Shown here: in pieces, positions 1,999 through 18,614 of the stretch
Position numbering within the stretch: the stretch's first letter is position 1
Layout of the letters: every line of letters begins with the position of its first letter
Assembly: GCF_019972295.1 (NCBI RefSeq)
Contig: NZ_BLJA01000001.1
Span: 2,142,158-2,174,157, forward strand
Direction of reading: 5' to 3'
From: Geobacter sp. AOG2
Lineage (GTDB): Bacteria; Desulfobacterota; Desulfuromonadia; Geobacterales; Pseudopelobacteraceae
Length of the DNA stretch: 32,000 bases
Program-made: the position numbers and the translations under genes
Notes under the pieces: model-generated
Seen by the model: only the letters and a program-made list of their open reading frames with translations
Told to the model about the DNA's origin: nothing
Databases searched by the model: none

Positions 1999-3324
<1,326 letters not shown>

Positions 3325-4356
3325 TCATATAATCAACATTGCATCGCCGTAGCTGTAAAACCTGAAACCGCGGGTAACGGCCTCCCGGTAGGCGTCGAGA
3401 ACGAACTCCCGCCCGGCAAAGGCGGCCACCAGCATGAGCAGCGTCGATTCCGGGAGGTGAAAATTGGTTATCAGGCCGTCCACCACCCGGAAGCGGTAGC
3501 CGGGATAAATAAAAATATCGGCTTCACCGGCGCCGGCCCTGATGTTGCCGTCATCGTCGGCGGCAAACTCCAGCGCCCGGGCACTGGTGGTGCCGACCGC
3601 AACCACCCTGCCTCCCCGCTCCCTGGTGGAACGGACGGCATCGGCGGTTTCCGTGGGAATGGCATACCATTCGCGGTGGATGCGATGTTCTTCCACCTGT
3701 TCCACCCGCACCGGCTTGAAGGTGCCAAGCCCCGTATGCAGGGTCAACCGGGCGCTGCCCACCCCCTTGGCCTCCAGCTCGGCCAGCAGCTCACGGGTGA
3801 AATGGAGGCCCGCCGTGGGCGCGGCCACCGCACCGGGGACCTGTGCGATCACCGTCTGGTACCGTTCCCGGTCCTGCACGTCGTCATCGCGCTGAAGATA
3901 CGGGGGAAGCGGTATGTGCCCCTCCCGTTCGAGCCACGTATCGAACGGTTCGGCGCCCGAAAACGCCACCCGCCACGATTCGGGCCCCTGGCGGGCGATC
4001 ACCCGCGCCGTCATCCCGGCGGCAAGCAGAATCGGTTGCCCTTCCCGAAAGCGTTTCGACCCGCGCAGCAGGCATTCCCACTCGTCTCCCCCGGGGGATA
4101 ACCGCTTCACCAGAAACAGTTCCACGCTCCCGCCGGTTTCCTTGGCGCCGAACAGCCGGGCCGGAATGACCCGCGTGTCGTTCATCACCAGCAGATCGCC
4201 GGGGCGCAGATGGTCCCCCAGGTGGGCGAAAACATCCTCGCCGATGGTTTTCGAACCGCGACCCAGGAGCATCAGGCGCGACGCGTCCCGTTCGGAAGCC
4301 GGATAACGGGCGATCAGTTCCTGGGGCAGGTGGTAATTGAAATCCTTAACAAACAT
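3325..4356 (-). CDS. queA: S-adenosylmethionine:tRNA ribosyltransferase-isomerase
   Basis: 343-aa ORF with full-length QueA-like sequence (FNYHLPQELIARYP, LLVMNDTRVIPARL, PLPPYL, AAPTAGLHFT, GTTSARALE). It is adjacent to tgt, the other queuosine-pathway gene. Confidence 0.95.
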   Translation of the reverse strand: MFVKDFNYHLPQELIARYPASERDASRLMLLGRGSKTIGEDVFAHLGDHLRPGDLLVMNDTRVIPARLFGAKETGGSVELFLVKRLSPGGDEWECLLRGSKRFREGQPILLAAGMTARVIARQGPESWRVAFSGAEPFDTWLEREGHIPLPPYLQRDDDVQDRERYQTVIAQVPGAVAAPTAGLHFTRELLAELEAKGVGSARLTLHTGLGTFKPVRVEQVEEHRIHREWYAIPTETADAVRSTRERGGRVVAVGTTSARALEFAADDDGNIRAGAGEADIFIYPGYRFRVVDGLITNFHLPESTLLMLVAAFAGREFVLDAYREAVTRGFRFYSYGDAMLII

Positions 4357-4370
4357 AACCGTACGACCGT

Positions 4371-5501
4371 TCAGCGAATGTCAGAGAGCTTTTTCAGTTC
4401 CGTGCCGGGATAATAGTAGGAAAGGATCTCGGCATACGAAAAGCCTTCCAGAGCCCGTTGTTTGGCGCCCCACTGGCAGAGCCCCACGCCGTGCCCGTTG
4501 CCGAGGCCTGAGAATATGGCGTCCCCATTGACAACCTTGACGGTGAAATTGGTGCTTTTGATAATGCCGTAGCCTATCGCCTTGCGGAACTGGTTGCCGG
4601 GTACGGCGACCTCGCCCCGCCGGGTAACGGCGATGACATCCTTCAGCCGGCCGCTGCTGTTGCGAGCCCCGGCCCGGATATCGATCAGGCCCGTCGCCTT
4701 GTAACCGGCGGCCTTAAGTCTTTCCTCCAAGTCCCGCAGGCTCAGCTTCTGGTCCCAGGCGCTGGACGGCGACAACCGGCAGTACTGGCAATCGACCCCC
4801 TTGAGATAGGGAATGCTCATTCCCCATACATTCTCCGCCGCCTCGGTCTTGCCGCCGCAATTGGAGTGATAGAAGGCCTGGATGATGGCGCCGTTGTAGG
4901 TCAGCACCTCGCCCGCGGTTTCCGAGACCCCCCGCCGGGCGCGGTTATCCTCGATCTCGCAGCCGTTGTACACCTGGTCGATAACCGACGATTCGAGATG
5001 ATACAGCGCATCGCGCCGGGATTCTCTCCGGTTGACGGCATAGGTCCTGGCGATCACCGCCTGGGCCTTGATCGCCTCGATCGGCCAGGCGGAGGAGATC
5101 TCGCAATTGATCAGGCCGACCAGGTAGTCCTCAAGAGGCAACTCGTTGACGACCAGCAAGCCCTTATCGTTAAAACGTATCTCGGCAACCCCGCGATACC
5201 GCTTGCCGTTGATGGAAACCGCCGACGCCGCCGAGAAGACCAGCCGGCGGTAAGGCACGCCATCCACAAGCACATCGTCCCGGCCCGCCTTAACGGCAAC
5301 AGGGGGGTTCAGGGCAACGGCGGCGCCGTTTTCCCGGAGTGCCAGGAGGCCGTTACCGTCAACGGTGACACCGGGGGCGTTCTTGACAATGGCGACCCTG
5401 ATCGTATCCACCGACAGCGCGGCATCGCACCTGCGTCCCGCCAAAACGACAAAGGCCGCCGCAATCAACAACCCAGCCATAACTATGCGTATTTTTGTCA
5501 T
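4371..5501 (-). CDS. SpoIID/LytB-domain protein (secreted, peptidoglycan-lytic enhancer family)
   Basis: SpoIID-family motifs: KAQAVIARTYA, FYHSNCGGKTE, GHGVGLCQWGA. I chose the ATG at 5501 because MTKIRIVMAGLLIAAAFVVLAG reads as a signal peptide. The track ORF extends 15 codons further to a TTG with no RBS. Confidence 0.8.
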   Translation of the reverse strand: MTKIRIVMAGLLIAAAFVVLAGRRCDAALSVDTIRVAIVKNAPGVTVDGNGLLALRENGAAVALNPPVAVKAGRDDVLVDGVPYRRLVFSAASAVSINGKRYRGVAEIRFNDKGLLVVNELPLEDYLVGLINCEISSAWPIEAIKAQAVIARTYAVNRRESRRDALYHLESSVIDQVYNGCEIEDNRARRGVSETAGEVLTYNGAIIQAFYHSNCGGKTEAAENVWGMSIPYLKGVDCQYCRLSPSSAWDQKLSLRDLEERLKAAGYKATGLIDIRAGARNSSGRLKDVIAVTRRGEVAVPGNQFRKAIGYGIIKSTNFTVKVVNGDAIFSGLGNGHGVGLCQWGAKQRALEGFSYAEILSYYYPGTELKKLSDIR

Positions 5502-5704
5502 CTGCAAAACTTGATGATAAGACCACACAAAGAGGCTGTATGTCAATTTGTTTTAACATCCGGCCGCCGTGCGACGGCCGCCAAATTTACCATTGAAATG
5601 TGGGGGGAGACTCGTTACACTGCTGCCGCAATGACTCTCCATTATACGAATAGAGCGCCTTTACCCCCGCGACGTCGCCATGCCTCCCCCGGCAGGGTCC
5701 GGCA

Positions 5705-6667
5705 ATGAGCGCGCTCCTCTCGATCAAACATCTGAGCACCTGCTTCAGAACCCCGCAAGGGGTCCTGGCGGCGGTCAACGACGTCAGCCTGGAGGTCCGC
5801 AAGGGGAGCACCGTGGCCCTGGTGGGCGAATCCGGGTCGGGCAAGTCGCTGACCGCGCTCTCCATCATGCGCCTCATCCCCTCGCCCGGTTTCATCAGCT
5901 CCGGCGAGATCACGTTCGACGGCACCGATCTCGTCCCGCTCCCGGAGGAGGCCATGCGCTCCATCCGGGGCAGCAGGATCTCCATGGTGTTCCAGGAGCC
6001 CATGACCTCCCTCAATCCGGTTCTGCGCATCGGGGAACAGGTTACGGAGCCGCTCCGGCTGCACCGCGGCATGTCGCGCCGGGAAGCCGAGGCCTGCGGG
6101 GCCGACTTGCTGCGCAAGGTGGGGATCCCGTCGTCCGGGGACCGCATGCGCGACTATCCCCACCAGTTGAGCGGCGGCATGCGCCAGCGGGTCATGATCG
6201 CCATGGCCCTGGCCTGCAGCCCGGCGCTCCTGATCGCCGACGAACCGACGACCGCGCTGGATGTCACCATTCAGGCCCAGATCCTGGAACTGATCGACTC
6301 CCTCAGGCGGTCGGAGGACATGGGCATCCTGCTGATCACCCACGATCTGGGTATTGTGGCCGAACGGTCGGAGCGGACCTGCGTCATGTATGCCGGGCGC
6401 ATCGTGGAATCGGCCCCGACGGCGGAACTTCTCGGCGCCCCCCGGCACCCCTATACCGCGGCGCTTCTTGCGTCCCTCCCCCAGAACGCCCAGCCGGGAC
6501 AGCCGCTTGCCACCCTTCCGGGACAGCCTCCCGGCCTGACGAAGCAACTGTCCGGGTGCGGCTTTTGCGAGCGCTGCCCCCATGCGGAGCCCCCGTGCCT
6601 GACCCAGGTCCCCGAGCTGGAAGAGGTCTCTCCCGGCCATCTCGTCCGTTGCTGGAAACGCCTATGA
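5705..6667 (+). CDS. Oligopeptide/dipeptide-type ABC transporter ATP-binding protein (OppD/DppD-like)
   Basis: Walker A GESGSGKS, signature LSGGMRQR, Walker [14 protein letters not shown]-loop ITHDL, and an Opp-type C-terminal extension with a Cys cluster ([15 protein letters not shown]). Confidence 0.9.
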
Positions 6668-7650
6668 CAGAGAATCAACCGCTACTCGGCGGAGTGAAAC
6701 TCCGCAAACAGTTCCGCGTCAGCGCCGGTCCCGCCTCGCAAACAGGGGTGCTCACCGCGGTGGACGAGGTGGATGTGGAGATCGCCAGGGGAGAAACCGT
6801 CGGCATTGCGGGCGAATCCGGGTGCGGCAAATCGACCCTGGCCAAGCTCCTGGCCGGCCTCTTGCCCTCCGACGGCGGCGAGGTCCGCTACCGCGGTACG
6901 GCCATCGACACCCTCTCCCCGGCGGAACGGAAACAATTCCGGCAGCGGACCCAGATGATCTTCCAGGACCCCTTTTCCTCCCTGAACCCGCGCATGCGCA
7001 TCGGCGATTCGATCGCCGAACCGCTGGTCATTGCCGGAGGCGCTTCCCGGCAGGCCATCCGCGCCAAAATGCTGGAGCTGCTGGAGTCGGTCGGCCTGAA
7101 GGCCGAGCACGCCGACCGTTTCCCCAACGAATTTTCCGGCGGTCAGCGCCAACGCATCGGCATAGCGCGGGCCCTGGCCTCGTCGCCCGAGATCATCATC
7201 GCCGACGAACCGGTCTCCTCTCTCGACATCTCCATTCAGGCCCAGATCATCAACCTGCTCCAGGCCATGAAGTCCGAGCACCACCTGACCATGATCATCG
7301 TGTCCCACGATCTTTCGGTGCTGCGCCATGTATGCGACCGGGTGCTGGTCATGTACCTGGGGGTCATCGTGGAGAGCGCCCCGGCTGCCCAGCTCTTCCA
7401 GCATTTCCAGCATCCCTATACCGAAGCGCTGATCGCGGCCATCCCGCGCATCGCCGGGCAACGCCGCGACGCGCCGGTCCTCCTGGCCGACGACCTCCCC
7501 TCGCCCCTCGCCATCCCCGGCGGCTGCCGTTTCCATCCCCGCTGCCGCTACGCCGCCGAAATCTGCCGCACCACCCCACCCCCTCTGGAGGAGAAACGGG
7601 ACGGCCATTTTGCCGCCTGTCACCTGAGCAGGGACATCTTCGCCGGCTGA
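6664..7650 (+). CDS. Oligopeptide/dipeptide-type ABC transporter ATP-binding protein (OppF/DppF-like)
   Basis: Its ATG overlaps the upstream stop (ATGA at 6664-6667). Walker A GESGCGKST, signature FSGGQRQR, Walker B IIIADEPVSSLD, H-loop VSHDL, and a C-terminal GCRFHPRCRYAAEIC motif. It occupies the 3' part of the long track ORF 5680..7650. Confidence 0.9.
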   Translation: MTENQPLLGGVKLRKQFRVSAGPASQTGVLTAVDEVDVEIARGETVGIAGESGCGKSTLAKLLAGLLPSDGGEVRYRGTAIDTLSPAERKQFRQRTQMIFQDPFSSLNPRMRIGDSIAEPLVIAGGASRQAIRAKMLELLESVGLKAEHADRFPNEFSGGQRQRIGIARALASSPEIIIADEPVSSLDISIQAQIINLLQAMKSEHHLTMIIVSHDLSVLRHVCDRVLVMYLGVIVESAPAAQLFQHFQHPYTEALIAAIPRIAGQRRDAPVLLADDLPSPLAIPGGCRFHPRCRYAAEICRTTPPPLEEKRDGHFAACHLSRDIFAG

Positions 7651-7651
7651 C

Positions 7652-7663
7652 CAGCCGCCTGCT
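7652..7663. repeat. Left copy of the island-flanking direct repeat CAGCCGCCTGCT
   Basis: Exact 12-mer, also present at 13067-13078. It starts 2 nt after the TGA (7648-7650) of the oppF-like gene. Confidence 0.6.
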
Positions 7664-7976
7664 TTGGATACCATTTAAAGTTCTCCAGGCATTTTCTCTT
7701 TAACAGCATGGGCCGGTATAGGGGCTTAAATAGGAAAACTCCCCATTTTAAGCCCTTGATGCAGGTGGAAAACCGGCCACCGAAAACAGACTGGGGTTGA
7801 AAAATTCACCCCTCACGATCCGGGGCGGACGGCGGCAACTTTCATGGTCGGCATGGGGTTGGTATGGGGGTTATGGATGAAATCATCGACACGGTGTTGA
7901 ACGACGTCAAGCAAGGCGTGATCCTTACCAACAATTGTCATAAGCACGACAAGGAAAAGAACAAACCCTGGAAAGC

Positions 7977-8299
7977 TTAGGAGCGCAAATTTAACAGCAA
8001 CATCATCGGCATAGACAGCAAGGTTACTCCGTTGAGGCGCAAGGTCGCTTGAGGTGGATTGAAATAATTTATTAGATAAAGATAAAAGAGATAGTGTGCG
8101 AAGGCGGCTTGGCTTACGCCGATCCTGGACCGTGTTTCGATGATCTCGGCGGGGTCATTTCCATAACTGGCGTAAGGCACGCTTCGTCGAATTCGCGCAT
8201 GGTCCTCGCATCAATCAACCCAATTTCATGCAGGTCTTGCGCCGTTTCGTGCGCCGCCTCCATGGCTTCACTTTTATACGCTCTAACTCTCTTCCTCAT
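7977..8299 (-). pseudogene. Frameshifted HTH antitoxin-like gene (COG2944 / HigA2 / NadS-like)
   Basis: The N-terminal part (MRKRVRAYKSEAMEAAHETAQDLHEIGLIDARTMREFDEACLTPVMEMTP) is in the frame of 8114..8299. The HTH part (AEIIETRSRIGVSQAAFAHYL) continues in the frame of 7977..8180. The two join if one base is restored in the run at 8148-8154 (minus-strand ACCCCGCCGAG). The C-terminus after AFAHYL passes through an AT-rich patch and no longer resembles the family. Confidence 0.65.
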
Positions 8300-8350
8300 C
8301 CGTAGGTAACCTCCGAGGTTCGGCCGCGTCCTGGTTGATAATCCTGACCG

Positions 8351-8677
8351 TCATTTTGCCACCCCCAGGAACACGGCCAGGCACCGCTCAATCTCCACCA
8401 GCGTATCTGCATCAACGTGCCCGAATGCCGGCCCTATCATGTCGTACTTGACGGTCATGGCCTTGTCCACCATTACCTGGGAAGGCTTCTGCAAGCCGTT
8501 CTCGCTGCTTGGCTGGACGGTGACACGCAACAGCGGGGCTTCCACCAGCGTGCTTGTCACCGGCAACACAGTAACAGTGCTATGCCCGTTGAACTGGTCG
8601 GACTGGATCACCAGGGCGGGCCTTGGCTTGCCAAAGTCACCTTGCATAGCAATGGTGACAAGCTCTCCGCGCCTCAT
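8351..8677 (-). CDS. mazF: Type II toxin, PemK/MazF-family endoribonuclease
   Basis: 108 aa with a MazF/PemK-like pattern: RRGELVTI...GKPRPALVIQSD...VTVLPVTS...VMVDKAMTV. Its ATG overlaps the stop of the upstream antitoxin (ATGA at 8674-8677). Confidence 0.85.
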   Translation of the reverse strand: MRRGELVTIAMQGDFGKPRPALVIQSDQFNGHSTVTVLPVTSTLVEAPLLRVTVQPSSENGLQKPSQVMVDKAMTVKYDMIGPAFGHVDADTLVEIERCLAVFLGVAK

Positions 8678-8898
8678 TCAGTCCACCCATCCACGTCCGC
8701 CAAGGCTTCATCCATGAAACGTTGCATATCCGTGTCGGCTTTGTCGGCTTGTGCCACAAGCCGGGATTGACGGCGGCATTCTTCGGCAAAGCCCGGTCGC
8801 CGGGTGTCCGGCACCCAAATCTGCACAGGCCGCAGACCTGCGGCACGCAGGCGATCTCTGTGGCTTTGTACTCGTTGTCTAACAGATTGGGTTCGCAT
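8674..8898 (-). CDS. mazE: Antitoxin partnered with MazF (DUF3018-like / MazE-type)
   Basis: 74 aa. VRQRVQSHRDRLRAAGLRPVQIWVPDTRRPGFAEECRRQS matches, from memory, the small antitoxins found upstream of PemK/MazF toxins. GGAGGA RBS at 8906-8911 (minus). Translationally coupled to mazF. Confidence 0.75.
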   Translation of the reverse strand: MRTQSVRQRVQSHRDRLRAAGLRPVQIWVPDTRRPGFAEECRRQSRLVAQADKADTDMQRFMDEALADVDGWTE

Positions 8899-8914
8899 AA
8901 AAACATCCTCCTTT

Positions 8915-8948
8915 TGTTACATGTAACACCAGGCCGAAAGGATGTCAA
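8915..8948 (-). promoter_or_regulatory. Putative mazEF promoter/operator: -35 TTGACA plus a 14-bp perfect palindrome
   Basis: The minus strand reads TTGACA (8948..8943), 16-18 nt, then TGTTACATGTAACA (perfect palindrome, 8915-8928), then AAAGGAGGA and the ATG at 8898. The palindrome covers the expected -10 position, as expected for an autorepression operator. The -10 hexamer itself is weak. Confidence 0.5.
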
Positions 8949-9034
8949 GGGGTATTGCCCGGCATTGCCTGGGTGTCAATGCGGCGGTAGCTTGTCATTT
9001 TCAGATTATTTCACTTTCAAGGGCTGACCCCGCC

Positions 9035-11560
9035 TTATACTCTTTCACCAATTCTACTTAGAAGATCGTTTCTCATCTCCATATAAATCGCACCTATTTT
9101 TGTTATAGACATTAGCATCTTCTTCGCTGTGTCGAAATGTTTAGAATCGGACGTTGCCGTAGCAATTCCATACAGCACAAGCACAAAATCCAATTTTTCT
9201 CCGTCATCTAACTTTTCTATGTCTATCGATGTTAAATATTCATTAGCCTCTTCAAAGTTTTTCAACGCTAAGCTTGCTTTTGCAATAAATATATTACCAA
9301 CTGGGGAAGGTTCGATGGCTATGCTATCAATAAAATATCTCCTTGCCTCAGTAAACTTACCAATGTGGAAATTCAGCTCTCCCAAGATAAAATATGCTCT
9401 AGCTAAATCAGACGGGGACAAGGCTGAACTTTCTTGCAATTGGGTTAGAATCATTAGTGATTCATTCAGGTGATTTTCTTCATCAGTTAAAGTACCTAAA
9501 TAGTATAAGCAATCAGCAAAAAGAACTTTTTCTGAACTTGAAGAACTTGCGAGGTGGCCCTGTTTAAATGATGCAATGGTATTATGAAGAAGATTGATGG
9601 CAGAATTAACGTCTTTGTTCACATAAAGTAGCATCGCCTTCATGGTTTGATAGTGCAGAACTGTTCCGGCCTCTGGGTTCGCATCAAGAATGCGGTCAAT
9701 AATTGAAATCTTTTCTTCCGAAGTTAATTGTTCCCCAACAAGTTGCAGATAAAGATTTAATACCTTTATATCTGTAGTTGTTTCTAGGTCTGAAATTTTT
9801 TTTAATTCTTTATAAGCCAGTTTTATATTTCCAGCTTTCTCCAATTGATACAATGCCTTCAAGTAGGCTATTTCATCATACCATCGCTGGTCTTCGACTG
9901 CTTTTGAATGGAATTTCAGAACTCCGTAATAGTCTTTTCCATTTCCAGCCATATCATAACATTTCTTTAAAAATTGAATTATACCTGTTAGCGCATCAAC
10001 ATCCATAGTTATAAACTTGTCAGCAATATCTGCGCCTGTCTTTATTAAAGGTACGGTATGAGCTCTGTGACAAAGTAAGTACCACGTGAGATGTAAACGA
10101 CCGGCTCTAAGTGCGTCTTTATAGTTCTCGCATGCATATGCTTTTCTAGCCTCACTCATAGCCACACTACTGTACAGCCCCCTGCAGCAGTTTTTAAATT
10201 TTTGACCAGAACCACACAAACATGAATCTTTAGGCCCTGGCTCAAATGTATGCAAATAATGCTGTGTTAAAACTTTGTCTGAGTACGGATAATAAGGATC
10301 AACTTCTTGGTCTAGGACTTCTGGTGAATTGCGTTTAATTCCCCAGATTTTTTGTACTGGAACAAAGAAATTAGGCACAAGCTTATCTTCTTGTGGTGGT
10401 CCTAAAACACACTTACCGTTTATTTTGCGGAAAGGAATGGCGACATTCCGACATTCCCCCAACGATGATAGCCCAGAGATTGCAAGGATCTCTTGCTTAT
10501 CAGAGATCTTATCAGGCGTGCCGAATTCGATCTTATCAGCAACACTATAATTCCAAGCTTCTCCGACAAAAAATACTTCTTTGATGCCATGCTGTTTTGC
10601 TTTTTTTGCAATATTCTGCCAGAATAAATATTTATCTTCTTGATTCCTAAAATTTGTTTGCACCATTTCCAAGCGACGGTGAGAGCTAACCATAAATACC
10701 ACCGTCATATGATACCCGTCTGCTTCTAATAGTTGTTTTGCTGTTTCTAAAAAGTAACTGAACCGGCCCTCGAAGGAGTCGGGCATTTCCTTATAGGTAC
10801 TACCATATCTTTCTTTTGCAGCTTCCAAAATTTCAGCTGGCATTTTTAATGGAAGAAACCTTAAATGAATTGGTTTTAAGTCTGGGATAGATAGCCATTC
10901 CGTTCGATAATCTTCAAAGCTCTGCATGCACGACGGAGTATATTCTTCAAGAAGCTGAAATATTATTCCTGGTTCTATTTTCGTCTTTTCTTTATCGAAT
11001 ATCGGATAAATTCTGTCTGGCCCCAATTTGTCGTCTATATCGTTCACTAAAATGATAAGCACTGTGAAGGCGTGGGCAAGGGCGCTTAGCAATTCAATGC
11101 TCTCTAGATTCTTATCAATCCATCGCCTTTCAACTTTTAAATACCCCTTTTCAGCACCAAACGATGAATCCATTTCAACAACCATTTTGCCTATCGTTTC
11201 GATTTTTTCTAATGGGTTGACTTCCAGTGTAAATGATGGTTCTTTTAGATAATTGTTATGTATAGATACGATTGCTACACTTTTGGTTTCTAAGTCAGAT
11301 TGTTTTACAATTTGATTTCGTGCATCTCTGCACCATATCATTATCGTATCTTTTGCCATAGCTTGTTGCCATAGAGCATACCAATCTTCGAAGTTATGGA
11401 TTTTTGACTTCTCAGACTGCAACGCAAAGGTAACATTGCGTAAAGCTTGGATGCAGGCATTTAAATAAATGACAAACTCATCTGAGTTTTTGTATGACTC
11501 AGCTGCCTTTACCCAATGCGAAAAAGCCTCACGAAGCCGTTTACTGGCAGTCAATTCCAT
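9035..11560 (-). CDS. Orphan 841-aa protein: unrecognised N-terminal ~440 aa, SEC-C zinc-binding motif, C-terminal TPR-like repeat region
   Basis: Uninterrupted 2.5-kb ORF in AT-rich DNA (hand counts: 20/60 G+C at 9061-9120, 25/60 at 10021-10080, against 38/60 at 6001-6060). ATG at 11560 with GAGGA 4 nt upstream. SEC-C motif CLCGSGQKFKNCC at aa 447-459 (nt ~10178-10228). Residues ~470-841 are helical repeats with TPR-like units, e.g. ARAYFILGELNFHIGKFTEARRYFIDSIAIEP. Confidence 0.85.
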   Translation of the reverse strand: MELTASKRLREAFSHWVKAAESYKNSDEFVIYLNACIQALRNVTFALQSEKSKIHNFEDWYALWQQAMAKDTIMIWCRDARNQIVKQSDLETKSVAIVSIHNNYLKEPSFTLEVNPLEKIETIGKMVVEMDSSFGAEKGYLKVERRWIDKNLESIELLSALAHAFTVLIILVNDIDDKLGPDRIYPIFDKEKTKIEPGIIFQLLEEYTPSCMQSFEDYRTEWLSIPDLKPIHLRFLPLKMPAEILEAAKERYGSTYKEMPDSFEGRFSYFLETAKQLLEADGYHMTVVFMVSSHRRLEMVQTNFRNQEDKYLFWQNIAKKAKQHGIKEVFFVGEAWNYSVADKIEFGTPDKISDKQEILAISGLSSLGECRNVAIPFRKINGKCVLGPPQEDKLVPNFFVPVQKIWGIKRNSPEVLDQEVDPYYPYSDKVLTQHYLHTFEPGPKDSCLCGSGQKFKNCCRGLYSSVAMSEARKAYACENYKDALRAGRLHLTWYLLCHRAHTVPLIKTGADIADKFITMDVDALTGIIQFLKKCYDMAGNGKDYYGVLKFHSKAVEDQRWYDEIAYLKALYQLEKAGNIKLAYKELKKISDLETTTDIKVLNLYLQLVGEQLTSEEKISIIDRILDANPEAGTVLHYQTMKAMLLYVNKDVNSAINLLHNTIASFKQGHLASSSSSEKVLFADCLYYLGTLTDEENHLNESLMILTQLQESSALSPSDLARAYFILGELNFHIGKFTEARRYFIDSIAIEPSPVGNIFIAKASLALKNFEEANEYLTSIDIEKLDDGEKLDFVLVLYGIATATSDSKHFDTAKKMLMSITKIGAIYMEMRNDLLSRIGERV

Positions 11561-11780
11561 TTGATCCTCATTTGCATTGCAAGGAGAACTCGGGGACCGA
11601 GAGGACCCACATAATTTCCTCTAAACTTATACTCTTAGATGCGTCTCCTTGGCTGCCCACCCTGTACCTCCAATTCCATTTGGCCAACGGGAATGGCTTT
11701 GACCCGCCAGCCTTTTTGGGCGTGTCGTAAGTCTTGTAAGTGCCTGCGCTGCTGTTGAGCACCTTTAGATGTGTCTTGTA

Positions 11781-12077
11781 TCAAGGCTTGCTTTTCGACT
11801 TCTTAGGCCACTTCTGAGCCCCATGCAGAAACCGCAGAATCTCTATCCGCTCGCCCATGATGCGGTAGATAGTAATAAAAGGGGTCTGACTGATAACCAA
11901 CTCGCGGGTTCCCTTCACTCTCCCAATCCGCCCCATTTCCGGCTGCAAAACAATAAGACTGGTTTGCCGCTCAATCTCCTCATCCTGCGAGATCGCCGCA
12001 AGCGGGTTGTCCTGGGCGATGTAGTCCAGTTGCTCGAAACGTTCCTCTGCGGCAATGGGCAACCATACTAGGATCAC
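11781..12077 (-). CDS. parE: Type II toxin, ParE/RelE superfamily
   Basis: 98 aa with a ParE-like pattern: W...A..DL..I..YIA.DNP.AA...IE......L...P..GR.GRV.GTRELV....PFI..YRI....IEILRFLHGAQ. GTG start overlaps the antitoxin stop (GTGA at 12074-12077). Confidence 0.8.
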   Translation of the reverse strand: MILVWLPIAAEERFEQLDYIAQDNPLAAISQDEEIERQTSLIVLQPEMGRIGRVKGTRELVISQTPFITIYRIMGERIEILRFLHGAQKWPKKSKSKP

Positions 12078-12538
12078 GCGGCACGCCCTTTAGCCTGCTT
12101 TGCCCACGCCTCCCGGCGCTTCGCGCTCATTGCCTTGACCTCGGCATCAGAAAGCCATGCCGCGCTCGGGTTGTCTGCCTGCCGGATACCCTCTGCAACC
12201 TGCTCCCGGAACCACTTGTCATGCTCGGCGGCGTCGAAGGTCCGCTTCATCCGGGCTGCCGCGTCAGGGCGTACCCGCTTCTCGGCAGGGTCATAGTTAC
12301 TGGCATTGACGTTGAACTGCGATATACCAATGCTCTTGAGGTAGTTCACAAGGGTTTCAAACCGGCTGAAAACCCTGACGGCACCACGCCGGGCTGCCAA
12401 AGTCCGTTCCATCATGCCATATTTGATGACGATTCCCCACCCCCCCGGTTGGCCGATGACTTCCGCGCCGCGCACGGCCCCGGCCTCGACCAGGTGTTGC
12501 AGGGTCACATGATCTATTGTGTCCATCGTTGTTGCCAT
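12074..12538 (-). CDS. ParD/stability-determinant-type antitoxin with an extra N-terminal domain
   Basis: The C-terminal ~55 aa (AEHDKWFREQVAEGIRQADNPSAAWLSDAEVKAMSAKRREAW) resemble the short stability-determinant antitoxins paired with ParE toxins. The N-terminal ~95 aa are an additional domain I cannot name. I chose the ATG at 12538 (MATTMDT), 7 nt after GGAGGTG, over the track's GTG at 12547. Confidence 0.7.
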   Translation of the reverse strand: MATTMDTIDHVTLQHLVEAGAVRGAEVIGQPGGWGIVIKYGMMERTLAARRGAVRVFSRFETLVNYLKSIGISQFNVNASNYDPAEKRVRPDAAARMKRTFDAAEHDKWFREQVAEGIRQADNPSAAWLSDAEVKAMSAKRREAWAKQAKGRAA

Positions 12539-12563
12539 ACAACCCACCTCCGGTTACTTACTT

Positions 12564-12602
12564 TGTAATTACATTTATAACCAAATAATAAATAATTGGC
12601 AA
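12564..12602 (-). promoter_or_regulatory. Putative parDE promoter with a palindromic operator
   Basis: The minus strand reads TTGCCA (12602..12597), a 17-nt spacer, TATAAA (12579..12574), then directly the perfect 10-bp palindrome TGTAATTACA (12564-12573), about 12 nt before the GGAGGTG RBS. Confidence 0.55.
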
Positions 12603-12741
12603 CGGGCAAATGAATACCCCGCCCGGCAACTTGACATAGCATCCCCACTGGGCGCGATTAAGAGGCATTTACAGTTTCACCAAATAAATCTGGCTATTAC
12701 AATTGGCGTAATGCCATGTTTCGGATAGGTTGATTTCATAT

Positions 12742-12986
12742 ATTAAAGGGTTTCCACGATAAAGACAGCGAAGTGCTCTTTGATGATCGGTTTGTAAAAC
12801 GTTTTAGGCTTTTGAGAGACATACGCATCAATGGCAAATGGCGTATCTGCTTCAAATGGCTTGGGAACGTACTTCGGGGTGTCACCGGAGGTGTGGTTGA
12901 ATCTCCAGGCCGATTATGATCTGCGGGTTGCCCGGCGAAATATTCGCCTTGCACATTGTGCATCTGGAGCTTGCCGTATAAATTAA
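12742..12986 (+). pseudogene. Fossil higB-higA module (frameshift plus internal deletions)
   Basis: IKGF (12742-12753) shifts by +1 nt into HDKDSEVLFDDRFVKRFR...IRINGKWRICFKW, from 12755. These are the N- and C-terminal HigB (plasmid-maintenance killer) motifs, with about 40 central residues missing. From 12864, in a third frame, TYFGVSPEVWLNLQADYDLRVA is the C-terminal HigA signature, ending at TAA 12984-12986. No intact start codon. Confidence 0.6.
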
Positions 12987-13066
12987 GCAAAATCGAATAG
13001 ATACGTGACAAACCGTAAAGTCCTTTCGAGAACCGGGTCAAAAGAGGGACCTTTTTGCCCCCCGAT

Positions 13067-13078
13067 CAGCCGCCTGCT
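13067..13078. repeat. Right copy of the island-flanking direct repeat CAGCCGCCTGCT
   Basis: Exact match to 7652-7663. It lies ~35 nt upstream of the arsR-family promoter. Confidence 0.6.
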
Positions 13079-13111
13079 CCGAATATTATTAATTCTCCGC
13101 GCTTATTCTCC

Positions 13112-13140
13112 TTGACAGCTCAGAAATCAATATATATATT
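13112..13140 (+). promoter_or_regulatory. Sigma-70-type promoter of the ArsR-family gene
   Basis: TTGACA (13112-13117), a 17-nt spacer, TATATT (13135-13140), then a ~29-nt leader with GAGGA before the ATG at 13170. AT-rich inverted repeats (AGAAAT...ATTTCT) around the -10 could be the autoregulatory site. Confidence 0.6.
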
Positions 13141-13169
13141 TTTTCATTATTTCTTATACGAGGACAACC

Positions 13170-13442
13170 ATGGAATTCAATGTAAATATGCAATTTGCGA
13201 CAGAAGCAGAGGTTTTGAAGGTACTGGGACACCCGATCAGGCTCAAGATCGTGGCCGGCCTCTGCACCCAGGAATGCAACGTGAAGCATATCTGGGAGTG
13301 CCTCAACCTGCCGCAAGCCACGGTATCCCAGCACCTTGCCCTGTTGAAACACAAGGGCATCATCGAAGGCAAACGGGATGGCGTCGAGGTGCACTACAGC
13401 GTCATCCACCCCCTGGCCAAGAAGATCATAGCCGTCCTGTGA
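13170..13442 (+). CDS. ArsR/SmtB-family HTH transcriptional regulator
   Basis: 90 aa: VLKVLGHPIRLKIVAGLCTQECNVKHIWECLNLPQATVSQHLALLKHKGII is the ArsR winged-HTH core. CTQEC sits at the alpha-3 position, where metal-sensing family members carry cysteines. Confidence 0.85.
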   Translation: MEFNVNMQFATEAEVLKVLGHPIRLKIVAGLCTQECNVKHIWECLNLPQATVSQHLALLKHKGIIEGKRDGVEVHYSVIHPLAKKIIAVL

Positions 13443-13452
13443 AATTCGGGCG

Positions 13453-14265
13453 TCAAGCCGGCTTTATCATAAGATATATCACCTCGTAGGTCGCAGGGAT
13501 CATCCCATCCGCAAAGAAGCGCCGTTGGTAAACCTCCGACATATCCTCGATAATTCTCCGCCAGCCGAGTCCGCCCGCGCCGCCCCGCGCCGCCGCGCCG
13601 GCGCCGATGCCCTTGATGGACCTGAGCAGCCCCTGCACGTCGGGGTGATGGTCCATCTCGATCTCGCTGGTCACCTGCACCTGCCCGAGATCGAGGCGGG
13701 CCAACGCCTCCCGCACCGCCGCAACCCCCATGAACCGATGCAGCCGCCCGAGACGGGGGTCGTCCGGCGCTGCCCGCCGGGCAAGCGCTTCGCGGTAACT
13801 CTCCTGCAACTCCCACAGCGTCGCGCCGCCGAAGAAGGCCAGGGCGATAAACCCGTCCTTTGTAACGATGCGCCGGCATTCCCGGAGACAGCCATCCAGC
13901 GAACCGAGCCATTGCAGCGTGGATGCGGAGACCACAAGGTCGAAGGAACCATCCCGGAACGGGAGGTGTTCCGCATCCCCGTTGACGAACAGGCAATCCC
14001 CCTCCTCCTTGACGCTGGCCTGCCGAACCATGTTGAGCGCCAGATCGAGCCCGCAGCGGTGCACCTTCGGGTAGCGCTCCTTCAGGGCGGCCGTCAGCGC
14101 CCCGGTGCCGCAGCCGATGTCCAGCGCAATCCGGGGCGTCTCCGTCACGCGCCCCGCCAACAGTTCCATGAGACGCCGCACCACGCGCTGCTGCACCGAG
14201 GCAAGCCGGTCGTATGCGTCGGCATGGCGGTGAAACGATCTGCCTACCTTGCGCCTGTCAAACAT
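13453..14265 (-). CDS. bioC: Malonyl-ACP O-methyltransferase BioC
   Basis: 270 aa. N-terminal KVGRSFHRHADAYDRLASVQQRV, the SAM motif LDIGCGTG, and DLVVSASTLQW. Last gene of a bioF-bioH-bioC run; overlaps bioH by 8 nt. Confidence 0.85.
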   Translation of the reverse strand: MFDRRKVGRSFHRHADAYDRLASVQQRVVRRLMELLAGRVTETPRIALDIGCGTGALTAALKERYPKVHRCGLDLALNMVRQASVKEEGDCLFVNGDAEHLPFRDGSFDLVVSASTLQWLGSLDGCLRECRRIVTKDGFIALAFFGGATLWELQESYREALARRAAPDDPRLGRLHRFMGVAAVREALARLDLGQVQVTSEIEMDHHPDVQGLLRSIKGIGAGAAARGGAGGLGWRRIIEDMSEVYQRRFFADGMIPATYEVIYLMIKPA

Positions 14266-15085
14266 ATGCGCCGCGCACCTCCCGGCTGAAATCCGCCAGA
14301 CCGGCGTTGAACCCGTCGCAACGGGTCAGGAAAGGGGCATGGCCGCACCCGGCATAGGTCACATGGCGGCCGGCGGGAATCCGTTTTGCCATGAAGGCCG
14401 AAGCCGCAGACGGGCAGATCGGGTCGTGTTCGCCGCTGATCACCAGGGTCGGCCGGTCGATGGCCGCAAGCTGTTTCCGCAGGTCGGCCTCCGCGAGCGA
14501 GGCCAGGGATTGCAGCGCCACGGCCGTTTCCGGGACCGGCACCGCATCCAGTAGGGCACGGATCTCCTCCTCCCGGCCGCTCGCGGCCAACTCTCCCGGA
14601 ACGAACATGCGGGCAACAAACCCCTCAAGGGCCCGTTTCAGGTTACGGCGCACCTTGAGGGCCATGCCCTGGGCCTCGGCCGGGGCCAACCCGTGGGGAA
14701 AATCCGCGGCGGAGGTAAACAGCGGCGTTCCGCAGATCAGCACCAGGCCGCTCAAACGCTCCTGCAAGAGGGGTACGGCGCGTACCGCCACCTGGGCCCC
14801 CTGGGACCACCCCGCCAGGATGGCGCCGTTCAGGTCGAGATAACGGAACAGGTCGATAATATCGGAGCAAAACGTCTCCAGGCGGCACTCGCCGGAACCC
14901 ACGGGAGAGTCGCCGTGGCCGCGCAGGTCCGGGGCGATCACGCGGAACCGGGCGGAGAGCCGGTCAAGCTGGAGGCTCCAGACGGCGGAGGACATGCACC
15001 AGCCGTGGATCAGCACCAGCGCCGGTCCCTGCCCCTGTTCCCGGTACCGGAGCCGCTCCCCCCGGCTATCTTCATACCACGGCAT
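14258..15085 (-). CDS. bioH: Alpha/beta hydrolase, probable pimeloyl-ACP methyl ester esterase BioH
   Basis: 275 aa. LVLIHGWCMSSAVWSLQL...LRGHGDS, the nucleophile elbow GWSQGA, and a C-terminal GCGHAPF (His of the triad). Sits between bioF and bioC. Confidence 0.7.
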   Translation of the reverse strand: MPWYEDSRGERLRYREQGQGPALVLIHGWCMSSAVWSLQLDRLSARFRVIAPDLRGHGDSPVGSGECRLETFCSDIIDLFRYLDLNGAILAGWSQGAQVAVRAVPLLQERLSGLVLICGTPLFTSAADFPHGLAPAEAQGMALKVRRNLKRALEGFVARMFVPGELAASGREEEIRALLDAVPVPETAVALQSLASLAEADLRKQLAAIDRPTLVISGEHDPICPSAASAFMAKRIPAGRHVTYAGCGHAPFLTRCDGFNAGLADFSREVRGAYV

Positions 15086-16261
15086 CTAGATGACCCCCAA
15101 TCTGCGGCCGACCGCTATGACCCGCTCGGCCGCCCGGTCCAGGTCTGCGTCGCCGTGGGTCGCCATGAGGGTAAAACGGAGCCGGCAGGCACCGGCAGGC
15201 ACGGTGGGGGGACGAATCCCCTGGACGTACAACCCTTCTTCCAACAGCATCCCGGAAAACCGCATGGTGGTGTCGGCCTCCCCGGTCACGAGCGGCACGA
15301 TCTGGGTTTCGCCGTCGGGGAGCGTGAAACCGGCCGAGCGCATATGGTTTCTGAACAGAGCGCTCTTGCGGCGGAGTTGTTCCCGCAGGCTCTTCACTTC
15401 CGGCGATCGGACCAGTTCGACCGCCGCCAGGGACGCCGCCAGCACGGCCGGCGGCAGGGAGGTGGAAAAGATGAAGCTGCGGGCGCGGTTGAGCAACAAC
15501 TCCCGTAACTCCGCCGAAACCGCGGCATAGGCGCCGTAGCTCCCCAGAGCCTTGCCGAAGGTGCCCATGCCGATATCCACGCCGTCCGTGACGCCCAGCA
15601 TTTCGGCCGTGCCCCTCCCCTGTTCCCCCAGGACCCCGCTGCCGTGGGCGTCATCCACCATCAGGAGCGCCTTGTGGTCGGTCTTGAGCCGGACCAGTTC
15701 CCCGAGGGGGGCGATATCGCCGTCCATGCTGAAGACCCCGTCCGTGACGATCAGGGCGCGGCCCGTGCCCCGGTGTTTTTCCAGCAGCCGGGCCAGAGCG
15801 GTATGATCGTTGTGGGGATAACGCACCAGCCGCGCGCCGGACAGAAGAGCGCCGTCAACGATGCTGGCATGGTTGAGCCTGTCGGAAAAAATGACGTCGC
15901 CACGCCCGGCCAGCGCCGGGATGATGCCGGTATTGGCGGCGTAACCGCTGTTGAAGAGCAGCGCCGCCTCCGTCTGTTTGAAGCGGGCCACCGCCGCCTC
16001 CAGGCGCTCATGCAACTCCATGGTGCCGGACACGAGCCGCGAGGCCCCGCTCGAAACGCCGAACCGGGTTGCGGCGTCGGCCGCCGCCGCGATCAGGGCC
16101 GGATGATCGGCAAGCCCCAGATAGTTGTTGGAACAGAGCAACAGCACCTTTTTGCCGGCCATCTCCACCCACGCCGACTGGCGCCCCTGGATAAGGCGCG
16201 TCCTGCGATACAGTCCCCGCTCCTTGATCTGCTCCAACTCCTGTTGAATGGAAATCTCCAC
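15086..16261 (-). CDS. bioF: 8-amino-7-oxononanoate synthase
   Basis: 391 aa, class-II aminotransferase fold. GLYRRTR near the N-terminus, [17 protein letters not shown], and the PLP-lysine context [11 protein letters not shown] start at 16261, 4 nt after GGAGG. Confidence 0.9.
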
Positions 16262-16273
16262 AATGCCTCCGAA

Positions 16274-16305
16274 TAGTCAACCCGCATCAATACCGAGGTT
16301 GACAA
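16274..16305. promoter_or_regulatory. Putative BirA operator (bioO-like inverted repeat) upstream of bioF
   Basis: The minus strand reads TTGTCAACC-N14-GGTTGACTA (8/9 symmetric), ending 12 nt before the bioF start. It resembles the E. coli-type bioO half-sites TTGTAAACC...GGTTTACAA. Confidence 0.5.
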
Positions 16306-16370
16306 GTATGGCAAAAAAAATGCTGGTGTTCGCATGCCCGGTTTTTCACACACATGAGCCGTACAGGACC

Positions 16371-17528
16371 CTAACCCAGGGGCAGGGAAAAGGAGAAAAC
16401 CGTGCCCTCGTCCTGATTGCTTCTGAAATCGACCTTGCCCTTGAGATAGCGCTCCCCGAACAATTTCATGCTGTACGTGCCGATGCCCCGGCCCAACGCA
16501 GATTTCGTGCTGAATGAGCGCTTGAACAGTTGCAACTGCGCCTCCGACGGAATCTCGCCGCTATTGTGTACCTCGATAGTTGCCCGCGATCCGTCCGAAT
16601 CGGCCGAAAGCGTCACCACGCCTCCGACCGGTGTGGCCTCCAGGGCATTCAGCGTCATATTGCCGATGATCCGGCGCAGGATCGCCGCATCGGTGGTGAC
16701 GATGAAATCCGGGCCGTCCTTCAGCACCAACTCCCTGCCGGGCGCCCTCTCGTGATGGTTGAAAAGCCGGCTGGTTTCGAGCAATACCTCCCGGATGCTT
16801 ACGGGGGCGCATTCGGGCACGAACTCTCCCCGTTCCGCCGCCAGCAGATTGCGTTGTCCCTGGATCTCGTCCAGCAGGTTTCCCGACAGCGTCACAAGCC
16901 AGCCGACGTAGTCGGAAGGCGCATGCCCGGACACGTCCTCCCGCTCCGCCATAAGGGAGGCCAGACCATGAATGCCGCCGGCCGTATTGACGACATCATG
17001 GAAAAAAAGCTGCTCCAGAACCTCGCGACGTTTTTCGTTGCTGATATCCTGGAGTACCACGATGGTGAATTTCCGGTCGTGGATACGGATCGGCGTCGCC
17101 GTTGCCAGCATATCGAGGGCAAGCTCCCTGTCGCCCTTCACGGCGACCAGGCACTCGCGCACAACCTGTCCGCCGCTCTCCTGGCTCTTCAGAATGGCGA
17201 GCACGGCGCCGCATACGGAACAATACTCACTGGTGCCGCACCCGCCGGAGGAATCTTCGGCATGGGCGCAGTTGAGCACCTCGCCGAGACGCTTGCCGAC
17301 CAGTTCCCCATTGTCGGCAGCCCCGGAAAGCTGAAGCGCGTTACGGTTACAGGCCACGATCTGCCGCTGTTCGTTGACCAGCACCACATAGCCCGGCATG
17401 GCCTGGATAAGGGTGTCCACCAACTCTTCGTGGAGAACGGCCCGCTGCTGTTCCGCCAGAACATCGCCGGAGGCCAGCTCGGCAGGGGCAAACCGGGTCA
17501 TGGAGAGTGCGGATTGTGTTTGAGCCAT
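16371..17528 (-). CDS. Sensor histidine kinase (cytoplasmic; PAS-like sensor with a 4-Cys motif; HATPase_c)
   Basis: 385 aa with no TM segments. H-box FFHDVVNTAGGIHGL, N-box IIGNMTLNALEA, and G-boxes HNSGEI and GRGIGTYSMKL. The sensor region contains C-x9-C-x5-C-x2-C (NCAHAEDSSGGCGTSEYCSVCG). Starts 9 nt after the manC stop. Confidence 0.85.
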   Translation of the reverse strand: MAQTQSALSMTRFAPAELASGDVLAEQQRAVLHEELVDTLIQAMPGYVVLVNEQRQIVACNRNALQLSGAADNGELVGKRLGEVLNCAHAEDSSGGCGTSEYCSVCGAVLAILKSQESGGQVVRECLVAVKGDRELALDMLATATPIRIHDRKFTIVVLQDISNEKRREVLEQLFFHDVVNTAGGIHGLASLMAEREDVSGHAPSDYVGWLVTLSGNLLDEIQGQRNLLAAERGEFVPECAPVSIREVLLETSRLFNHHERAPGRELVLKDGPDFIVTTDAAILRRIIGNMTLNALEATPVGGVVTLSADSDGSRATIEVHNSGEIPSEAQLQLFKRSFSTKSALGRGIGTYSMKLFGERYLKGKVDFRSNQDEGTVFSFSLPLG

Positions 17529-17537
17529 GCCAGCCCC

Positions 17538-18614
17538 CTACAAATAGGACGTAAGCCCGCGCGCCGTCAGTTGCTCGACCACCTTTTTCACATCCTGGGC
17601 CCGCTCCCGGTCGCACACCAGCAGGGCATCCGGGGTTGACACCACCACCAGCCCCCGTACCCCGACCGTGGCCACCATTTTGCCGTCGGCGTAGATCAGG
17701 CAATCCGACGAATCGATGGCCACATGGCCTGCGGCGTTGATGCAAACCGTGCCGGAGGCGTCCGGGGCGACCACCTCGGGGAGGGCGCTCCAGCTTCCCA
17801 CATCGCTCCACCCCATTTCCACCGGCACCACCAGGACCTTGGAGGATTTCTCCATGACGGCGTAATCTATGGAAACGCCGGCAACGGCGTCGTACATCGT
17901 CTCGATCTGCGCGGCAAGGTCCGAGAGTTCCCAGACATCGCCGGTAAACGATATGCCCGCCAGGGCCCGCCCCAAATCGGGTACATGGAAGGCTATCTCC
18001 CCCAGGATCGTGTCGCAGCGCCAGATGAACATCCCGCTGTTCCAGAAAAAGTTGCCCTCTTCCAGGTAACGGACCGCCTGCTCCAACGGCGGCTTCTCCA
18101 CAAAGCGTCGTACCGGGAACGGTCCGTCGCCGCGCAGTTCGAGATCGGCCTCGATATAGCCGTAACCGGTCTCGGGGCGGGACGGCATGATGCCCAGCGT
18201 CACCAGGTAACCGTTGTGCGCCGCGTGGCGGGCGCGCACCAGGGTTTCCCGGAGCCCCTCCTCGTCCTTGATGAAATGGTCCGCGGGCAGCACCACCATG
18301 ATCCCTGCGGGATCGTGGGCGGCAATGATGGCGGCCGCCAGCCCGATGGCCGGGGCGGTGTTCCGGGCCGAGGGTTCGGCGATGACGTCGATGGGCACGC
18401 CCTTGTAGCCGGAGAGCTGAAGCTCCGTCTCTTCGGCCTGAATCCGGTTGGTGATCACCAGGATACGCTTGGGGTTGAGCGGCAGCACCCGTTCGACCGT
18501 CCGCTGGAGCATGGTCCGGTCCCCGGTGATGGAGATGAGCTGCTTGGGACGGGCGGCACGGGATAAAGGCCAGAAACGGGTGCCGGAACCGCCGGCAAGG
18601 ATCACGATATACAT
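17538..18614 (-). CDS. manC: Mannose-1-phosphate guanylyltransferase (nucleotidyltransferase domain only)
   Basis: 358 aa. MYIVILAGGSGTRFWPLSR...PKQL and GYGYIE are typical of ManC/CpsB GMP enzymes. It lacks the C-terminal cupin/PMI domain. GAGGAAGGG RBS. Confidence 0.85.
   Translation of the reverse strand: MYIVILAGGSGTRFWPLSRAARPKQLISITGDRTMLQRTVERVLPLNPKRILVITNRIQAEETELQLSGYKGVPIDVIAEPSARNTAPAIGLAAAIIAAHDPAGIMVVLPADHFIKDEEGLRETLVRARHAAHNGYLVTLGIMPSRPETGYGYIEADLELRGDGPFPVRRFVEKPPLEQAVRYLEEGNFFWNSGMFIWRCDTILGEIAFHVPDLGRALAGISFTGDVWELSDLAAQIETMYDAVAGVSIDYAVMEKSSKVLVVPVEMGWSDVGSWSALPEVVAPDASGTVCINAAGHVAIDSSDCLIYADGKMVATVGVRGLVVVSTPDALLVCDRERAQDVKKVVEQLTARGLTSYL

Follow-up and report, generated by a model that had tools for sequence, protein, structure and literature searches.

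A segment between oppF and arsR in Geobacter sp. AOG2 is probably what remains of a decayed tyrosine-integrase genomic island

In a 32-kb stretch of the genome of Geobacter sp. AOG2 (the window, in whose coordinates all positions are given unless stated otherwise), 5.4 kb of DNA separate an oppF-like gene, which encodes an ABC-transporter ATPase, from the promoter of the next core gene, arsR. We consider it likely that this segment, referred to here as the island, is what erosion has left of a genomic island with a tyrosine integrase, which entered where the 3′ end of oppF meets the promoter of arsR. An earlier reading made from the letters alone (the sequence-only reading) had described an integrase-less island bounded by a 12-bp direct repeat, an att-type duplication left by site-specific insertion. 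Our analysis supports that interpretation, with corrections to the length of the repeat, to the absence of an integrase (a relic of one is present) and to the link between integrase and site.

Results

The island is bounded by a long, diverged copy of its target

The 12-mer CAGCCGCCTGCT stands at 7652–7663 and again at 13067–13078, in both places exact and on the plus strand. Its first copy begins one base after the stop codon (TGA, 7648–7650) of the oppF-like gene, and the match extends to 14 of 15 positions as GA[C/T]CAGCCGCCTGCT, as had been noted. The window contains only these two copies even when one mismatch is allowed (0.17 expected; at least two copies in 2 of 100 shuffles). Random pairs of 200-nucleotide (nt) stretches of the window had a direct 12-mer in common in 0.5% of trials, and among the 102 loci that we fetched CAGCCGCCTGCT occurred three times outside the AOG2 genome, so that the 12-mer is not a common word; the first figure agrees with the earlier judgment that the sharing is unlikely to arise by chance.

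What did not stand was the 12-bp unit itself. A gapped local alignment extended the repeat to an imperfect direct match between 7630–7707 (78 nt) and 13045–13119 (75 nt), in which 57 of 75 aligned bases were identical (76%), with one 3-nt indel, and of which the 12-mer is the longest perfect block. The alignment score was 32, compared with 10.0 ± 1.3 (maximum 16) for shuffles. When extended without gaps the 12-mer gave 46 nt at 74% identity, and the 22 nt to its left matched at 15 positions (p ~3 × 10−4, independently of the core). The repeat unit thus runs from 21 nt inside oppF, including its TGA, through 57 nt of the oppF–arsR spacer to the −35 hexamer of the arsR promoter. Both copies lie on the plus strand. 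The left, attL-like copy consists of the native oppF end (7630–7651), the 12-nt block and a diverged inner arm (7664–7707), and it has TTAACA where the arsR −35 box stands in the right copy. The right, attR-like copy consists of an oppF-end look-alike (13045–13066), the 12-nt block and the native spacer (13079–13119) through the −35 box. The look-alike reads RDLFAPR, with CGA in place of TGA, versus RDIFAG-stop in oppF itself. We found no third copy anywhere in the 32-kb stretch, the island included, and no terminal inverted repeats at the island ends (score 9.0 versus 8.9 for the null). The Logan assembly of run DRR200238 (L081), which was made independently, was identical to the window over 3200–19000, so the locus is not an assembly artefact.

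The genes on either side are core genes. The target gene (6664–7650, plus strand; PF00005 and PF08352), whose last 21 nt lie within the left repeat copy, encodes a protein 100% identical to P0001, ‘ABC transporter ATP-binding protein [Geobacter sp. AOG2]’. To the right lies the gene for an ArsR/SmtB-family regulator (13170–13442, plus strand; PF01022; NF033788, E = 4 × 10−22), preceded by an intact plus-strand promoter at 13112–13140 (TTGACA, a 17-nt spacer and TATATT; 11 of 12 consensus positions). The spacers of all relatives compared keep TTGACA with ATATATAT after it.

Relatives of AOG2 show the same site without the island. In eight related Geobacteraceae lineages arsR directly follows oppF, with spacers of 60–143 nt. 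A scan of GTDB genomes with OppF gave a best identity of 61% among the matches listed, and closer relatives came from a protein search and exact look-ups. The distant empty sites (L001, L003, L004 and L007; OppF 54–61% identical) have spacers of 60–123 nt, and the closer ones (OppF 85–90% identical) have spacers of 105 nt in the P0002 lineage (L082–L087), 109 nt in Geobacter sp. FeAm09 (L088), 102 nt in the P0009 lineage (L096/L097) and 143 nt in the P0006 lineage (L101). Taken over a wider range, relatives with OppF at 76–90% identity have the site empty. Once one repeat copy is taken out of the window along with everything between the copies (5,415 bp in all), the remaining spacer is 104 nt long and colinear with the 105 nt of L082, the closest relative. 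The empty junction that had been predicted, in which one repeat copy leads from the oppF stop to the arsR promoter, was thus recovered, with the right flank matching L082 at 36 of 41 positions. Homology to the relatives’ empty sites stops exactly at the repeat on both sides, and synteny with the relatives confirmed that the accessory DNA lies entirely between the copies, with core genes outside them. Given the eight empty-site lineages and a reconstruction colinear with L082, the comparison of sequences establishes an insertion and its boundaries at the repeat.

The two arms of each repeat copy differ in their affinity to the relatives. Compared with L082, the outer right arm (13079–13119) accounts for the 36 matches in 41 positions, whereas the inner one (7664–7707) matches at 30 of 44. 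The outer left arm (7630–7651) matched seven close relatives at 14–18 of 22 positions and the inner one (13045–13066) at 12–15 of 22; for the distant L102 the counts were 10 and 8 of 22. Judged by these alignments, the outer arms are the native ones. A left copy that is native and then foreign, together with a right copy that is foreign and then native, is the pattern that one reciprocal exchange between a circular DNA and the chromosome leaves behind. Two states, a GCC codon and the core sequence, are common to both copies and absent from the other lineages, and their restriction to the AOG2 copies indicates that the incoming copy came from the lineage of AOG2 itself or from a sister of it. 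In several places it is the native arm that has changed, whereas the inner arm seems to retain the ancestral sequence (TTGGATA, also found in L092 and L096).

The composition of the island also sets it apart, with 46% GC inside versus 62% and 58% in the flanks, and it is itself a mosaic of roughly 47%, 57%, 37%, 58% and 44% GC. No tRNA gene was found in the 32-kb window, a search of Rfam over 7000–13600 returned nothing but a sub-threshold chance match (SNORD69, E = 0.64), predicted promoters and terminators were no more numerous than in shuffles, with the exception of the arsR promoter, and a search of phage DNA with the island sequence gave no match.

A dead P4-type integrase lies directly inside the left repeat copy

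The description of the island as integrase-less proved right in that it has no working integrase, excisionase or transposase, but wrong in that the relic of an integrase is still there. At 7757–8055, on the plus strand, lies a P4-type tyrosine integrase pseudogene that retains only the final ~93 codons, in three reading frames. It starts 50 nt past the left repeat copy and points inwards. Over 301 nt it shares 82.7% identity with the 3′ end of the integrase gene of L103, a metagenome contig that we reached through a protein at least 90% identical to one of the island’s antitoxins (the ParC-like protein described below), and in a tblastn comparison it corresponds to residues 338–430 of the 431-amino-acid L103 integrase (three frames, E = 1 × 10−25). 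The first ~337 codons are gone from the window copy. Relative to L103 the remainder carries a 1-nt deletion, an 11-nt insertion and an in-frame stop, and HDLRRT has become HDPGRT and a downstream H…Y motif D…N; we take the altered residues (in HDLRRT, and the His and Tyr) to be the catalytic ones of this integrase family. In place of an integrase with arm-binding, central and catalytic domains the island has only this relic, and is a remnant and not a working member of the P4-type class. The position of the relic directly inside the left repeat copy strengthens the att reading of the repeat.

The relic was revealed only by the DNA comparison with L103. A six-frame Pfam scan of the non-coding ends of the island had found no integrase at E ≤ 1, which was a misleading negative: even when corrected for its frameshifts, the relic falls below detection by Pfam and NCBIfam. 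The Pfam searches and six-frame scan of the island likewise returned no relaxase, type IV secretion system, excisionase or transposase, and a hairpin at the point of integrase truncation (7720–7756) was no more stable than shuffles (z = −0.9).

L103 carries an intact relative of the element. Its integrase is a full-length P4-type protein of 431 amino acids (PF13356, PF22022 and PF00589), and the contig and the window have a common gene order and orientation, namely int (plus), then parE (minus) and its antitoxin gene (minus). Nucleotide identity is 83% for the integrase relic and 89% over window positions 11781–12652, which hold the parE–antitoxin operon. Only these two parts match; the DNA between them differs. 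A short higB-like relic at L103 12945–13005 gives a 79% match to window positions 12744–12804 over 61 nt. L103 also carries genes for AlpA, an HTH_36 protein and others that are absent from the window; a tblastn search of the island with the L103 genes found neither AlpA nor HTH_36. In the 16 kb available from L103, which ends inside the element, there is no gene for conjugation or for a relaxase.

About 170 nt upstream of its integrase gene, L103 has a sequence like the 3′ half of tRNA-Arg(CCT), from the anticodon loop to CCA (~9812–9857 in the original coordinates of the contig). It was called by neither ARAGORN nor Rfam, and we identified it by alignment to the tRNA-Arg(CCT) of L025. This half-site is probably an att copy of the L103 element. 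P4-type integrases are abundant in Geobacteraceae. None from AOG2 was among the best 120 listed of the ~2,800 relatives of the L103 integrase, which is not evidence of absence, and a scan of viral contigs with that integrase gave distant matches only.

Two plasmid-type toxin–antitoxin pairs survive intact

Of the genes that the island still carries, four form two pairs. The first comprises a gene for a MazF/PemK-type toxin (8351–8677, minus strand; PF02452, E = 3.8 × 10−22, profile positions 1–109 of 109) and one for a MazE-like antitoxin (8674–8898, minus strand; PF11455, E = 9 × 10−35). The second pairs a ParE/RelE-family toxin (11781–12077, minus strand; PF05016, E = 6 × 10−14), which is 88.6% identical in amino-acid sequence to the ParE of L103, with a 154-amino-acid antitoxin (12077–12538, minus strand) that joins a ParC-like N-terminal domain (NF041544, E = 3.4 × 10−11; NF050103) to a RelB-like C-terminal stretch. 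This antitoxin is 93.5% identical to its L103 counterpart, its open reading frame (ORF) can be extended to 12547, and 395 plasmid records carry relatives of it. The region upstream of the operon (12548–12652, minus strand) is still homologous to the L103 element. All four ORFs are intact, the members of each pair adjoin, and both partners have full-length family matches; on this sequence evidence both pairs are predicted type II toxin–antitoxin modules of the plasmid type.

The mazEF DNA is 79% identical to the plasmid-borne mazEF of Xanthomonas citri and E. coli, and 72% identical to that of Pseudomonas plasmids, which is unusually close for hosts so distant. Oryzomonas sagensis and some metagenome-assembled genomes encode relatives of MazE that are at least 90% identical. 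The combination of the plasmid ‘ParC partition-associated’ domain (NF041544) with a short RelB-like stretch is a common architecture on plasmids of Xanthomonas, Rhizobium and Aeromonas.

Further genes of this kind appear to have decayed. Six-frame translation revealed the remains of a higB–higA pair with an internal deletion at 12736–12986 (plus strand), with a match to the C-terminal end of HigA (TIGR02607, E = 9 × 10−7) and PHROG matches to both toxin and antitoxin. A candidate frameshifted relic of a helix-turn-helix-type antitoxin gene at 8090–8299 (minus strand; ORFs 8114–8299 and 7977–8180) was seen by eye only and had no match in Pfam, NCBIfam or PHROGs.

The largest cargo gene joins an Ea47-like domain to a SEC-C/TPR half

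The remaining cargo gene (9035–11560, minus strand) encodes 841 amino acids, with an N-terminal domain like phage lambda Ea47, a SEC-C zinc motif and a TPR C-terminal half. Its GC content is 38%, and its GC at third codon positions is 0.34, versus 0.75–0.87 in core genes. Residues 6–335 are 28.5% identical to lambda Ea47 (E = 3 × 10−20), and PF26900, the lambda Ea47 family, is among the precomputed assignments for the protein. The C-terminal half holds both the TPR region and the SEC-C motif (residues 445–459), and is similar to rhizobial plasmid proteins described as ‘SEC-C domain-containing’. An exhaustive search of a 1.8-billion-protein library returned 1,349 cluster representatives, most of which were separate proteins of ~415 amino acids (the N-terminal type) or ~465 amino acids (the C-terminal type). 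The 841-amino-acid gene is therefore a fusion. AlphaFold models were confident (pLDDT 82 and 84); in fold searches the predicted structure of the full protein matched generic TPR proteins only, and the model of the Ea47-like N-terminal domain gave no match among solved structures. Homologues have as neighbours a ParE/Phd pair (L098) or Mrr, HNH and insertion sequence (IS) genes (L099), and a defence role for the protein would be a guess from such context. The gene was probably acquired later than, or separately from, the island. With ~1,350 cluster representatives, lambda’s own Ea47 among its members and no solved fold to match, the Ea47-like/SEC-C/TPR family could repay a specialist’s time.

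The oppF–arsR spacer has received other inserts

In this clade of Geobacteraceae the oppF–arsR spacer is a recurrent landing place, and four other lineages have unrelated inserts there. That of L093–L095 (9988–11896; positions in this section are those of the respective loci until stated otherwise) is 1.9 kb long and contains a 267-amino-acid lipoprotein-like ORF and an RmuC fragment. L102 has a 3.7-kb insert (9985–13706) with a 999-amino-acid M6 peptidase and no flanking repeat, L089 a 0.49-kb insert (9988–10473) with the relic of a REP-associated tyrosine transposase (RayT; NF047646, E = 6.5 × 10−10), and L005 a 431-nt insert (10982–11412). Among the spacer inserts compared, only that of AOG2 has a target duplication.

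The L093 insert is bracketed by three copies (10071–10147, 11391–11467 and 11678–11754; 83–88% identical) of an unrelated 77-nt hairpin repeat, GGGGACATAATAC...GTATTGTGTCCCC, and at 11160–11348 has tandem 77-nt units with the palindrome GTGTCCAGAAACTGGACAC. These 77-nt repeats look like repetitive extragenic palindromic (REP) elements or miniature inverted-repeat transposable elements; L089, with its RayT relic in this very spacer, belongs to a sister lineage. L092, of the P0005 lineage, has at 9326–9902 a native-type spacer start (CCTGCTTTGGATATTAT) followed by 325 nt of AT-rich DNA and a Lys-rich 83-amino-acid ORF, with no arsR before the contig ends, and for this reason we left it unclassified as a fifth lineage with an insert. 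The recurrent use of this spacer may also deserve a specialist’s attention.

Elsewhere in the window, positions 24001–29000 form a block of 44–51% GC with glycosyltransferase and ABC-ATPase genes inside a lipopolysaccharide/O-antigen cluster of 60–65% GC. The block is probably a horizontally exchanged sugar-chain segment.

Discussion

Origin and present state of the island

These observations lead us to propose the following history. A circular element would have borne a ~78-nt look-alike of the target, made up of the last 21 nt of oppF and 57 nt of spacer, and would have joined the chromosome in a single Campbell-type event, in which the two molecules crossed over within the identical 12 nt or next to them. 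The left hybrid copy would then consist of the native oppF end, the core and an element arm, and the right one of an element arm, the core and the native spacer with the arsR promoter. Because each hybrid copy keeps its native outer arm, both oppF and the arsR promoter stayed intact. The recombinase was most likely the island’s own P4-type integrase, encoded directly inside the att site by an inward-pointing gene, an arrangement common in elements of this kind. Comparison with L103 shows that the first ~337 integrase codons are gone, that what is left of the gene is frameshifted, and that excision and replication-type genes of the L103 type (AlpA, HTH_36 and others) are absent; such losses would have come about through deletion and point decay. 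HigBA has decayed as well, as may have the candidate second antitoxin gene that we noticed by eye. The survivors are the two intact plasmid-type toxin–antitoxin pairs, which tend to resist loss, and the low-GC Ea47-like/SEC-C/TPR gene.

With its integrase dead, the island is immobile by itself, and could be moved only by a compatible integrase, acting in trans or supplied in cis by a newly integrating element, as with the cis-mobilizable elements discussed below. The earlier conclusion that it is either immobilised or moved in trans thus holds. Of the proposed att-type duplication by site-specific insertion, the insertion and the duplication of the target are borne out by our comparisons, while its ‘site-specific’ nature is inferred, the L103 element having been found at a tRNA-Arg half-site and not at oppF. 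Excision is predicted to leave an attP junction containing GCCCCCCGATCAGCCGCCTGCTTTGGATACC and an attB junction containing GGCTGACCAGCCGCCTGCTCCGAATATT. We designed a pattern, GAYCAGCCGCCTGCTYYGRATA, to match attL, attR, attB or attP. A scan of JGI metagenome contigs with it returned one match (L091), about the chance expectation, and we rejected L091 as a related junction as it had nothing else in common with the window; a scan of viral contigs with the same pattern gave no match.

Several observations weigh against this account. The integrase of L103 adjoins a tRNA-Arg(CCT) half-site, to which the window repeat shows no similarity, so that the integrase is linked to the oppF site by position and orientation only, and the surviving 93 codons are too few for the specificity of the integrase to be read from them. 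Public metagenome and viral contigs yielded neither a circular form nor an attP or attB junction, nor a second oppF site that was occupied. Divergence between the repeat copies is 24%, no less than that between AOG2 and L082 over this stretch (58 of 75 positions identical, 77%), and despite it the Ea47-like gene has kept a composition unlike that of the host. The last two points together are better explained by an attP that had already diverged, by cargo added later or by stepwise assembly than by long decay in place.

Alternative explanations

Stepwise build-up at a hotspot, by several independent insertions of which the repeat marks only the oldest, may possibly have contributed, and we regard it as a supplement to the history proposed above. 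Unrelated extra DNA occupies this spacer in at least four other lineages, the island is a mosaic in composition, and the DNA between the two parts that match L103 is different. However, the island contains no internal repeat copies or further junction scars, and a swap of cargo in the donor before arrival could equally account for the mosaic. Moreover, such a build-up leaves the 78-nt duplication unexplained, which is why it adds to insertion by an integrase-bearing element and does not replace it.

An alternative to which we give little credence is a Campbell insertion driven by homology, in which host recombination over the ~78-nt patch took up a circle (for example one excised from this locus in a sister strain, or a plasmid fragment that had earlier acquired the locus) and the integrase fragment came along as a passenger. 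Such an origin would suit the inner arms, both of which resemble a diverged orthologue of the oppF end and spacer, with the AOG2-specific GCC codon and core and with TTGGATA as in L092 and L096, and it would also suit the plasmid type of both intact toxin–antitoxin modules and the tRNA target of the closest intact integrase. But the longest identical block is 12 nt, and RecA-dependent exchange normally needs identity well beyond that length. In addition, the relic is placed and oriented as the element’s own integrase would be, matching the att–int arrangement of L103, which would have to be coincidence, and the island retains no replication or mobilisation gene.

It is about as doubtful that the island is a working hitch-hiker, whose 78-nt att copies are used by a related P4-type integrase encoded elsewhere or by an incoming element, and whose 841-amino-acid gene, kept from being lost by the two toxin–antitoxin pairs, is an anti-phage system consisting of a single gene.

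Insertion of a transposon or IS, with the repeat as its target-site duplication, has very little to recommend it beyond the direct repeats that flank the insert, as target-site duplications are short and identical whereas this repeat is 78 nt long and imperfect, and the island has no terminal inverted repeats and no transposase or relic of one; together these features exclude it. A chance repeat with true boundaries elsewhere, for which one might cite the 0.5% of random pairs with a common 12-mer and the GC-richness of such stretches, is the least credible of all and is excluded by an extended alignment more than 15 standard deviations above shuffles and by empty-site homology whose limits coincide with the repeat at either end.

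Comparison with known systems

The AOG2 island offers a clean and fully bounded example of an eroded element, in which both junctions and the dead integrase can be seen, the empty site has been reconstructed and an intact relative is available for comparison. It illustrates how a short ‘att core’ spotted by eye can be the tip of a far longer, diverged duplication of the target, which here preserves both the oppF end and the adjoining arsR promoter.

Integration at the 3′ end of a protein-coding gene, with a substitute copy of that end brought by the element, is familiar from e14 and phage 21 at icd and from SGI1 at trmE. SGI1 at trmE is mentioned in PMC6531882. The diverged duplicate of the oppF 3′ end at the far end of the AOG2 insert (13045–13066) resembles such substitute copies. 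The difference is that the AOG2 crossover falls just past the stop codon, so that oppF keeps its own end and the look-alike on the element goes unused.

The island likewise resembles P4-type (DUF4102/Arm-DNA-bind_3) islands in that its integrase relic belongs to that family and sits directly inside an att copy, that the element carries a copy of the target’s 3′ end, and that relatives have the empty site. Such islands usually enter the 3′ half of tRNA genes, whereas the target in AOG2 is the end of a protein-coding gene with the adjoining promoter, and the AOG2 integrase is dead.

Decayed integrative elements that have kept attL and attR but lost their genes for integration and transfer are known as cis-mobilizable elements, or CIMEs (PMC6323972, PMC5704250). 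Like them, the AOG2 island is flanked by att-like direct repeats at a gene’s 3′ end, which duplicate the target, has no working integrase, excisionase or transfer gene that we could find, and seems to have been derived by deletion from an integrase-bearing element. It differs in that its repeats are 76% identical, with att function and mobilisation being putative, and in that CIMEs were described in Firmicutes as derivatives of integrative and conjugative elements, whereas L103 is without conjugation genes in the 16 kb available. On these likenesses the island would best be filed beside the CIMEs, and could equally well be described as the remnant of a P4-type-integrase genomic island. In either case it is an ordinary decayed genomic island, of a kind already known.

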